From the NCBI RefSeq assembly GCF_024700885.2, contig NZ_CP117016.1: DNA of 64,000 nt; one strand, written 5' to 3'. The notes under the pieces were generated by a model that saw only the letters and a list, made by a program, of their open reading frames with translations, ran no database searches and was not told where the DNA came from. This DNA comes from Escherichia coli (GTDB lineage Bacteria > Pseudomonadota > Gammaproteobacteria > Enterobacterales > Enterobacteriaceae). Every line of letters starts with the position of its first letter. Within the stretch, counting starts at the first letter, position 1. The translations under genes and the position numbers were made by a program. Positions 11,281 to 11,499 of this stretch are shown here, one piece after another.

Positions 11281-11499
11281 ACTGGACTCCAGTCTTAGAT
11301 ACTGGAATCAGTCTCGTTGCTCAGGGGGAGTAAAATTGTGAAGCGCATCAAATCCCGCTCCTCGTCCAGCGGACTGGAGAAATTACGCACAAATTTGTGA
11401 ATTAGCGCACGGATTTTTTCTTATTGAGTACAACAGGTTGGACAAATTTTGCCGGAGGGGGAATGTGCCGGTGCAGTAAACCGGCACAGAGTGGCGGAA

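Follow-up and report, generated by a model that had tools for sequence, protein, structure and literature searches.

Is the small palindrome that adjoins the rhmR start codon at this Escherichia coli locus an operator of the IclR type, through which RhmR would control its own gene, and has it been orphaned by disruption of that gene? Both had been proposed in a preliminary description of the window, by which we mean the whole 64-kb stretch of DNA analysed. The palindrome, ACTGGA-C-TCCAGT, lies on the plus strand at 11281–11293 (ACTGGAcTCCAGT) and has perfect 6-bp arms around a 1-nt spacer (6-1-6), and a second ACTGGA stands at 11301–11306; in these respects the sequence is as first described. 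The palindrome abuts the rhmR start codon because the ATG of rhmR (yfaX), a minus-strand gene, is the complement of 11280–11278. Read on the rhmR strand and numbered from the ATG (index, idx), it is ACTGGAGTCCAGT-ATG (idx −13 to −1), within the longer stretch ...AAGACTGGAGTCCAGT-ATG.

The window is E. coli DNA in this region and is 100% identical there to strain 1190. The genes of interest at the rhm locus are all on the minus strand, their order running from high to low coordinates, and the layout is as follows.

12702–11500, minus strand: yfaY
219 bp in length: the yfaY–rhmR spacer
11278–11280, minus strand: rhmR (yfaX) start codon
11113–11280, minus strand: rhmR 5′ fragment, codons 1–56, extended in frame by the IS end to a 91-aa ORF (11005–11280)
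9351–11112, no strand assigned: ISEc46 (IS200/IS605 family), inserted in rhmR
10617–11042, plus strand: ISEc46 tnpA
9391–10560, minus strand: ISEc46 tnpB
9024–9350, minus strand: internal rhmR fragment, ending at the deletion junction
9024–9035: deletion junction, with the 12-nt microhomology GCCTGCTCCCAG

Pfam HTH_IclR covers residues 9–56 of the rhmR 5′ fragment, and a 5′-truncated rhmT lies beyond the deletion junction. Compared with the intact locus of BL21 (L001), with which window positions 11113–11600 are collinear at 98.8% identity, ISEc46 is a clean insertion at one position, after codon 56, and the 3′ end of rhmR has been lost to a deletion of 1,727 bp (L001 2948–4674) that comprises 289 nt at the end of rhmR, rhmD in full and 162 nt at the start of rhmT. 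Codons 1–56 and the internal fragment are what remains of rhmR in the window, and the IS arrangement is common to 63 complete genomes. The regulator is destroyed and the region upstream of it is intact, and the term "orphaned" is therefore correct. Where the gene is intact, its product carries both HTH_IclR (36 bits) and IclR_C (212 bits), and judged by these domains RhmR is evidently a bona fide IclR-family protein encoded at the locus. The palindrome is also present in strains with intact rhmR (BL21, K-12, O157 and others), and so passes the test by which the preliminary description would have been refuted. A 61-nt block around it (11262–11322) is present in 3,978 of 5,426 E. coli genomes and identical in 3,595 of the 5,426, strains with annotated intact yfaX included.

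Taken by itself the palindrome is unremarkable and not beyond chance, the window holding 29 perfect 6-1-6 palindromes against ~15.6 expected in random sequence. Its hexamer is another matter. There are 49 copies of ACTGGA/TCCAGT in the window, and four of them (at 11281, 11288, 11301 and 11373) fall inside one 100-bp stretch starting at 11281, the window maximum; the Poisson probability, for what is a post hoc test, is ~1e-6 per 100-bp stretch and ~9e-4 when corrected for 640 stretches. Unlike the palindrome alone, this clustering is unusual. The copy at 11373–11378 had been overlooked at first reading.

Conservation within E. coli was set aside as evidence and a cross-genus comparison used in its place, because the whole region is 98–99% identical within the species and such identity is uninformative. 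We thus compared 38 rhmR loci from genome assemblies, with 70–98% protein identity and representing over 15 genera (Escherichia, Citrobacter, Klebsiella, Raoultella, Kluyvera, Trabulsiella, Kosakonia, Phytobacter, Atlantibacter, Mixta, Cedecea, Prodigiosinella, Pantoea and others); footprint statistics were calculated over 32 enterobacterial species anchored on the ATG, and a separate alignment comprised 29 species. The gene order rhmR-rhmD-rhmT is kept across the loci. Among the 32 species almost all positions from idx −35 to −19 and from −14 to +12 are invariant, including the wobble positions of codons 2–4, at a codon position that over rhmR shows a mean identity to the majority base of 0.651, with 4.2% of third positions invariant. 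The ~20 nt immediately upstream of idx −35 vary freely. These figures argue for strong constraint on a phylogenetic footprint of ~47 bp, spanning 11269–11315 of the window (idx −35 to +12). In Mixta, Prodigiosinella, Cedecea and Pantoea the gene upstream is a different one, and the conserved block stays with rhmR. Part of the invariance (GGAG, the ATG, codons) has trivial translational causes.

The palindrome fares differently within this footprint. The sole invariant part of idx −13 to −1 is GGAGTCCA (−10 to −3), and the arms are perfect in 15 of the 38 loci, match at five of six positions in 18 and at four of six in the other 5. Positions −12, −11, −2 and −1 vary (C/T, T/C/A, G/A/T and T/C, respectively), and the opposite arm shows no change that would compensate. 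Judged by alignment, the 6-1-6 palindrome is evidently not the conserved unit.

What is conserved appears instead to be a set of 18-bp sites, part of which had been predicted before. In Supplementary Table 2 of their comparative-genomic reconstruction of IclR-family regulons, Suvorova and Gelfand (2021, Front Microbiol 12:675815, PMC8222616) give the group SSO_2309 / b2248 (yfaX) three 18-bp sites, predicted in silico, at −163 (TGTCCAaCCtGTTGTACT), −99 (TcTCCAGtCtGcTGgACg) and −7 (aGTCCAGtatGTTGgAaT), with sites also listed for orthologues in Shigella, Citrobacter rodentium, Salmonella, Enterobacter, Klebsiella and Tolumonas. The published −7, −99 and −163 sequences are the same as those of three sites in the window, here called O1, O3 and O4. 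A fourth, O2, is new here and absent from the published site list. The literature that we searched yielded no EMSA, footprint, ChIP or SELEX data for RhmR; the protein that bears the same name in PMC3870299 comes from Chloroflexus, belongs to the LacI family and is unrelated, and the SL1344_3500/XynR paper gives no binding motif. The four sites, and the Shine-Dalgarno sequence that lies among them, are as follows.

11271–11288, minus strand: O1 (the "−7/−8 site"), AGTCCAGTATGTTGGAAT, predicted IclR group-1 dyad (NGT-12-ACN type) centred on the rhmR start codon
11287–11290 (idx −10 to −7), minus strand: Shine-Dalgarno sequence GGAG of rhmR, 6 nt before the ATG, within the palindrome as the inner portion of its left arm
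11291–11308 (idx −28 to −11), minus strand: O2 (the "−28 site", candidate), ATTCCAGTATCTAAGACT, 20 bp centre-to-centre from O1
11363–11380, minus strand: O3 (the "−99/−100 site"), TCTCCAGTCCGCTGGACG, published prediction, 18.8 bits, holding the ACTGGA at 11373–11378
11427–11444, minus strand: O4 (the "−163/−165 site"), TGTCCAACCTGTTGTACT, published prediction, 21.2 bits

Scores are from a position weight matrix (PWM) built from the published predicted sites. O1 (21.8 bits) is the top match in the window and, together with O3 and O4, makes up its three best matches, a ranking that is circular for Escherichia; because of the origin of the matrix, high scores in Escherichia, Citrobacter, Salmonella-type and Klebsiella loci are circular as well, and the independent test is confined to out-of-sample genera. 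In genera outside the published training set the motif recurs at fixed positions (−165, −100, −28 and −8). O1 is found at the same position in all of the 22 loci scanned (out of 38), with every genus covered. O4 likewise occurs in each genus of the scan, even where another gene stands upstream, its position being idx −164 to −166. O3 stands at idx −100 in most genera scanned, with conserved half-sites and a variable central spacer; it is weak (6–7 bits) in Trabulsiella and Atlantibacter, and no match of at least 5 bits was found for it in Prodigiosinella, Cedecea and Pantoea. The left half of O2, ATTCCAGTAT, is near-invariant and holds the second ACTGGA (11301–11306); in Escherichia the other half of the site is degenerate. 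The copies of O2 in Kosakonia and Phytobacter diazotrophicus read ATTCCAATATTCAGGACT and score 14.1 bits (11.8 bits in Phytobacter ursingii), in Klebsiella, Raoultella, Kluyvera and Trabulsiella it reads ATTCCAGTATTCAGGATT and scores 9.1 bits, and in Escherichia and Citrobacter it reads ATTCCAGTATCT[A/C]AGACT and scores 5.1 bits, the left half alone being good. As background, 240 kb of flanking sequence gave 0.38 matches/kb at ≥5 bits, 0.067/kb at ≥9 bits (16 matches) and 0.004/kb at ≥14 bits (1 match). In Escherichia O2 is at background score, and its status as a site therefore rests on the positional conservation of its left half and on the stronger orthologous copies; the spacing between O1 and O2 is exactly 20 bp in all genera in which O2 scores. 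Besides these sites no other strong match was found in the 64-kb window except one at 37372–37389 (15.6 bits), which was considered as a further regulon member and rejected, as it lies inside a 509-aa ORF and is probably due to chance.

Two differences between genera bear on what is being conserved. Cedecea and Pantoea have their start codon shifted 3 nt downstream but O1 in an unchanged register, and what is constrained is therefore a DNA site and not the ATG. A G-to-A change affects one and the same position in O1 and O2 of Kosakonia and Phytobacter diazotrophicus (TCCAATAT) and is confined to O1 in Phytobacter ursingii. The shared change in both sites, taken with the kept register, favours a DNA-level site over a translational constraint. 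Two Escherichia lineages in which rhmR is truncated carry mutations at otherwise invariant site positions.

Against this background the palindrome reads, base by base, as a composite of the end of O2, followed by the Shine-Dalgarno sequence, followed by the left half of O1. Its ACT is the last 3 nt of O2, with A(−13) belonging to the invariant GA of the O2 right half and C(−12) and T(−11) being the variable last positions of that site. GG (−10, −9) is Shine-Dalgarno sequence, AG (−8, −7) is both Shine-Dalgarno sequence and the start of O1, TCCA (−6 to −3) is the invariant half-site core and GT (−2, −1) are its variable inner positions. The AGTCCAGT of the palindrome is thus the left half of O1, and what had been taken as its right arm, TCCAGT, lies inside O1. 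The further ACTGGA is no third arm of the palindrome, as had been supposed, and is instead the left half-site of the separate tandem site O2. GGAG itself is, like a Shine-Dalgarno sequence, purine-rich, within 5–9 nt upstream of the start and conserved: it is invariant in the 29-species alignment and among the 38 loci is changed solely in Escherichia sp. E1V33 (to GGAA), in which rhmR is truncated. Its presence inside the palindrome, 6 nt before the ATG on the coding strand, had been overlooked at first.

Comparison with the family points the same way. The published consensus for IclR group 1 is GKTYCRY-W3-4-RYGRAMC, with an NGT-12-ACN subtype, and that for group 2 is TGRAACA-N1-2-TGTTYCA (PMC8222616). 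Group 1 requires 7–8 nt from TYC to GRA, and for group 2 we derived from its consensus a gap of likewise 7–8 nt, from GRA to TYC. O1, O3 and O4 have the group-1 form (nGTYCR...YGRACn, with ~12 nt between the GT and AC cores) and O2 has it more weakly; further group-1 features found here are positional conservation upstream of orthologues, tandem spacing of 18–22 nt and a cognate IclR-family gene. Family tandem sites stand 18–22 nt apart, which has been attributed to tetramer binding, and show positional peaks at −22 and at −3 to +1 (PMC8222616); the centres of O2 and O1, at about −19.5 and +0.5, agree with these peaks, and their 20-bp spacing lies within the 18–22 rule. Like the operators of IclR at aceBAK/iclR, of TtgV and of PcaU, the sites are 18-bp dyads with GTCCA/TGGAC-like half-sites 12 nt apart, and like those operators, which are bound by dimers or tetramers, they stand in tandem two helical turns apart and at the regulator's own start codon, an arrangement that gives autoregulation. 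The palindrome differs from all of these in its half-site gap: the half-sites of TGGA-G-TCCA are 1 nt apart, which fits neither group 1 nor group 2, and the palindrome is therefore no family-type site. Readings of it as a group-2 site or as a three-box arrangement were rejected on this spacing when set against the published consensus.

The proposal of an IclR-type autoregulatory operator can hence be divided in two. That the region is, by in silico prediction, an IclR-type operator region of the adjacent IclR-family regulator stands, given the HTH_IclR and IclR_C domains of RhmR, the published predicted 18-bp site that overlaps the palindrome and the conservation from Escherichia to Pantoea. 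That the 6-1-6 dyad is the recognition element does not, its half-sites being 1 nt apart (12 nt in group 1), its outer three pairs unconserved and uncompensated, and its left arm largely ribosome-binding site.

Two CRP-like sites are situated between the operators, and a promoter can be placed relative to them.

11337–11352 (centre idx −64.5), minus strand: CRP-like site 1, TTTGA-TGCGCT-TCACA, with TCACA invariant and TGA largely conserved across genera
11396–11411 (centre idx −123.5), minus strand: CRP-like site 2, CGTGC-GCTAAT-TCACA, with TGTGC/TGTGA-N6-TCACA/TCGCA across genera
11310–11315 (idx −35 to −30), minus strand: inferred −10 element GAGACT (nAnACT), with A2 and T6 conserved

In Prodigiosinella CRP-like site 2 is a perfect TGTGA-N6-TCACA. 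A palindrome that overlaps this site in the window (CACAAATTTGTG, 11388–11399) was considered and rejected, as outside Escherichia it is unconserved as a palindrome and just the TCACA of CRP-like site 2 is kept. Shimada et al. (2011, PMC3105977) list yfaX among novel CRP genomic-SELEX targets, and conserved sites and experimental CRP binding thus coincide at the locus. A scan of the spacer found no sigma-70 consensus promoter, a negative result that is expected for an activator-dependent promoter. On geometry, transcription would start near 11303 (idx −23), which would place CRP site 1 at −41.5; O2 and O1 would then cover −5 to +32 of the transcript, a typical repressor position.

Taking together the sequence, its conservation, the motif matches, the gene disruption and the published in silico prediction, we consider it very probable that the palindrome is an incidental composite within the control region of the rhmR-rhmD-rhmT-rhmA (L-rhamnonate) operon, in which RhmR would be the protein that binds O1–O4. 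O1 and O2 stand 20 bp apart, about two helical turns, as would be expected if an IclR tetramer (dimer of dimers) bound both on one face of the DNA. CRP-cAMP would activate a promoter with a weak −35 from CRP site 1 at about −41.5, with a start near idx −23, and RhmR on O2 and O1 would cover the start site, the leader, the Shine-Dalgarno sequence and the ATG. RhmR would thereby repress its own gene and the catabolic genes until released by inducer, presumably L-rhamnonate or a pathway intermediate, and O3 and O4 may add cooperativity or looping. The published regulog, itself a computational prediction, lacks O2 and does not discuss the Shine-Dalgarno overlap, the CRP sites or the promoter. Close parallels are the CRP-dependent, repressor-gated sugar-acid operons of E. 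coli, such as those of yjhI and xynR/yagI, in which a dehydratase, an MFS transporter and an aldolase likewise accompany a regulator of the IclR type, and CRP genomic-SELEX targets include both yfaX and yjhI; they differ in that rhmR is the first gene of its operon and not divergent, and the rhm operator array and CRP sites are predicted.

RhmR is not made in this strain, and the sites are therefore intact but would be unoccupied. Two further consequences may be considered, which we jointly regard as unlikely: either the repressor-less control region is constitutively de-repressed and cAMP-CRP-responsive and transcribes via rhmR′ into ISEc46, or the 91-aa, HTH-only RhmR′ remnant is still made and occupies the sites. 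If the former were true, the read-through transcript would carry tnpB, with its 3′ guide-RNA region, in sense orientation and tnpA in antisense, and activity of the IS200/IS605 element would be coupled to carbon status.

Other explanations of the conserved block were weighed against the RhmR-operator model. That the sites are real protein sites but serve a regulator other than RhmR, be it a paralogous IclR-family regulator for sugar acids (YjhI or XynR, for instance) or some unrelated factor, seems quite improbable to us. RhmR is indeed implicated solely by co-localisation and by the family-typical shape of the motif, and similar operons accompany several IclR paralogues in E. coli (PMC12445098), but the sites accompany rhmR in every genome examined, whatever its neighbours, invariant site positions are mutated in the two Escherichia lineages with truncated rhmR, and the 64-kb window offers no further strong site save the intragenic one.

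Very unlikely, in our estimate, is an RNA element, in which the palindrome, together with the larger surrounding complementarity between UGAUUCCAGUAU and AUGUUGGAAUCA, would fold the leader into a hairpin and control translation by sequestering the Shine-Dalgarno sequence and the AUG. RNAs of 55–71 nt over idx −40 to +30 do fold better than shuffled sequences (z −2.4 to −2.7), with a predicted 12-bp outer stem and a 5-bp inner hairpin across GGAG. The covariation score of 0.050, however, lies below the mean for shuffles (0.063), and 477 of 500 shuffles reached it; pairs of the inner hairpin are broken, uncompensated, in 4–6 of 23 distinct sequences; the same 18-bp motif occurs at −100 and −165 without a pairing partner; and the leader from the inferred start is unremarkable (z −0.39). 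The complementarity of the leader arises because two palindromic operator sites stand in tandem. An RNA hairpin or translational operator was rejected as the primary explanation, since the modest z comes only from starts upstream of the inferred one and is not accompanied by covariation.

It is highly unlikely, too, that the palindrome is due to chance and the conservation to no more than the ribosome-binding site, the start codon and the N-terminal codons, with no site for a regulatory protein. The 29 comparable palindromes in the window, the position of GGAG and the ATG within or adjoining the palindrome and the restriction of its perfect form to some lineages would all fit such an account. 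It leaves aside, however, that invariance reaches idx −35 and takes in synonymous positions of codons 2–4, that the motif occurs four times at fixed spacing and that the operator register outlasts the 3-nt start shift in Cedecea and Pantoea. A sigma-54 promoter element in the yfaX-yfaY spacer, finally, is extremely improbable: an RpoN holoenzyme genomic-SELEX peak of 34% intensity has been assigned to yfaX-rhmD-yfaVU (PMC8743547), but its coordinates and resolution do not locate it on the palindrome, reading the spacer by eye revealed no TGGCAC-N5-TTGC-like element with the correct GG/GC spacing (GG-N10-GC), and the conserved blocks are accounted for by the IclR and CRP motifs.

Under the RhmR-operator model, the palindrome is an ordinary feature, the seam of a ribosome-binding site and two neighbouring predicted RhmR sites, of which O1 is published. 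The element had thus already been predicted in the literature, and the present analysis adds only O2, the CRP sites with the promoter geometry, and a map of how the gene was disrupted. Beyond annotation the import is small: the parse of a small palindrome is corrected, and one tandem site (−28) is added to the published in silico RhmR regulog. E. coli is losing the rhm locus by two or more independent routes, and that the cis-elements are still intact in this lineage suggests that the loss here is recent. For the uncharacterised promoter of the L-rhamnonate operon, the analysis offers a predicted and testable architecture: O4, CRP-2, O3, CRP-1, −10, O2, Shine-Dalgarno, O1/ATG.

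In the window, rhmR (yfaX), which when intact codes for the predicted IclR-family regulator of the L-rhamnonate operon, carries two separate lesions, namely an ISEc46 insertion (9351-11112) and a deletion (junction at 9024-9035). ISEc46, a member of the IS200/IS605 family with divergent tnpA and tnpB, is cleanly inserted after rhmR codon 56, and a query across the IS junction is matched over at least 80% of its length in 63 complete E. coli genomes. The deletion comprises 1,727 bp, features a 12-nt microhomology, GCCTGCTCCCAG, at its junction, and joins an internal rhmR fragment to rhmT lacking its 5' end, with loss of rhmD. 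At the insertion, the following reading frame is found.

11005-11280, minus strand: 91-aa ORF, the rhmR 5' fragment continuing in frame into the IS end

This ORF contains the Pfam HTH_IclR domain nearly entire (residues 9-56, 37 bits) and is devoid of an effector or oligomerisation domain. With the regulator gone, transcripts predicted from the rhmR promoter would enter ISEc46 (11113 to 9351, minus strand), and this read-through would be antisense to tnpA (10617-11042, plus strand) and sense for tnpB (10560-9391, minus strand).

The register of the predicted 18-bp RhmR operator at the gene start is unchanged in Cedecea (locus L030) and Pantoea (locus L035), at 2995-3012 of these loci, despite a shift of the rhmR start codon, which in both is positioned 3 nt farther downstream with ATG in place of a TTG Leu codon. 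Farther upstream, a second conserved CRP-like site is situated between the predicted operators at -165 and -100 relative to the rhmR ATG.

11396-11411, rhmR strand: second CRP-like site, CGTGC-N6-TCACA

The first CRP-like site (11337-11352) is 59 bp away. The second, perfect in Prodigiosinella, may have a role in a second promoter or in tandem (class III-like) activation. The palindrome CACAAATTTGTG (11388-11399), which is not conserved elsewhere as a palindrome, overlaps this second site in E. coli. Across the 64-kb window, the sole other strong match to the RhmR matrix, which was derived from published in-silico RhmR (b2248) sites, is TGTCCAGTGGTGTGGAAT at 37372-37389 (15.6 bits); it sits within a 509-aa ORF (36503-38032, minus strand) and is probably a chance occurrence.

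The yfaX-yfaY spacer also holds an inverted repeat, located 12 nt 3' of the yfaY stop codon (11500-11502).

11464-11488, minus strand: perfect inverted repeat with 9-bp arms, TGTGCCGGT-N7-ACCGGCACA

This repeat probably forms the terminator hairpin of yfaY, but it lacks a T-run and was not called in the terminator scan. An RpoN holoenzyme genomic-SELEX peak (34%) has been reported in the same spacer (PMC8743547) at K-12 coordinate 2,360,468, in a numbering that differs from the current K-12 record (yfaX is at 2,361,429-2,362,211 there). Reading the spacer by eye, we found no sigma-54 consensus with correct GG/GC spacing.

In a set of 5,426 complete genomes of E. coli, about 1,400 are without the rhmR 5' region, and there are several independent routes of rhm locus decay. 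Genomes of the H15 type have a 3.9-kb deletion (1461-5323 in the intact BL21 locus, L001) that takes out the rhmA 5' end, rhmT, rhmD, rhmR and the promoter, and one end of which falls midway through the distal -165 operator, where GTTGGACA survives (E. coli H15, L042, NZ_CP010178, 2495-2510; window position ~11436). The cryptic-clade strains Escherichia sp. E1V33 (L039) and Escherichia sp. MOD1-EC7003 (L040) keep only a truncated rhmR, with 50 and 23 residues matched, respectively. Between -30 and -1 these genomes have substitutions at bases that are invariant elsewhere: where the Shine-Dalgarno sequence overlaps the predicted start-proximal operator (O1), GGAG has become GGAA in E1V33, and within the candidate -28 site TTCCA has become TTTCA, a pattern consistent with relaxed constraint following regulator loss.
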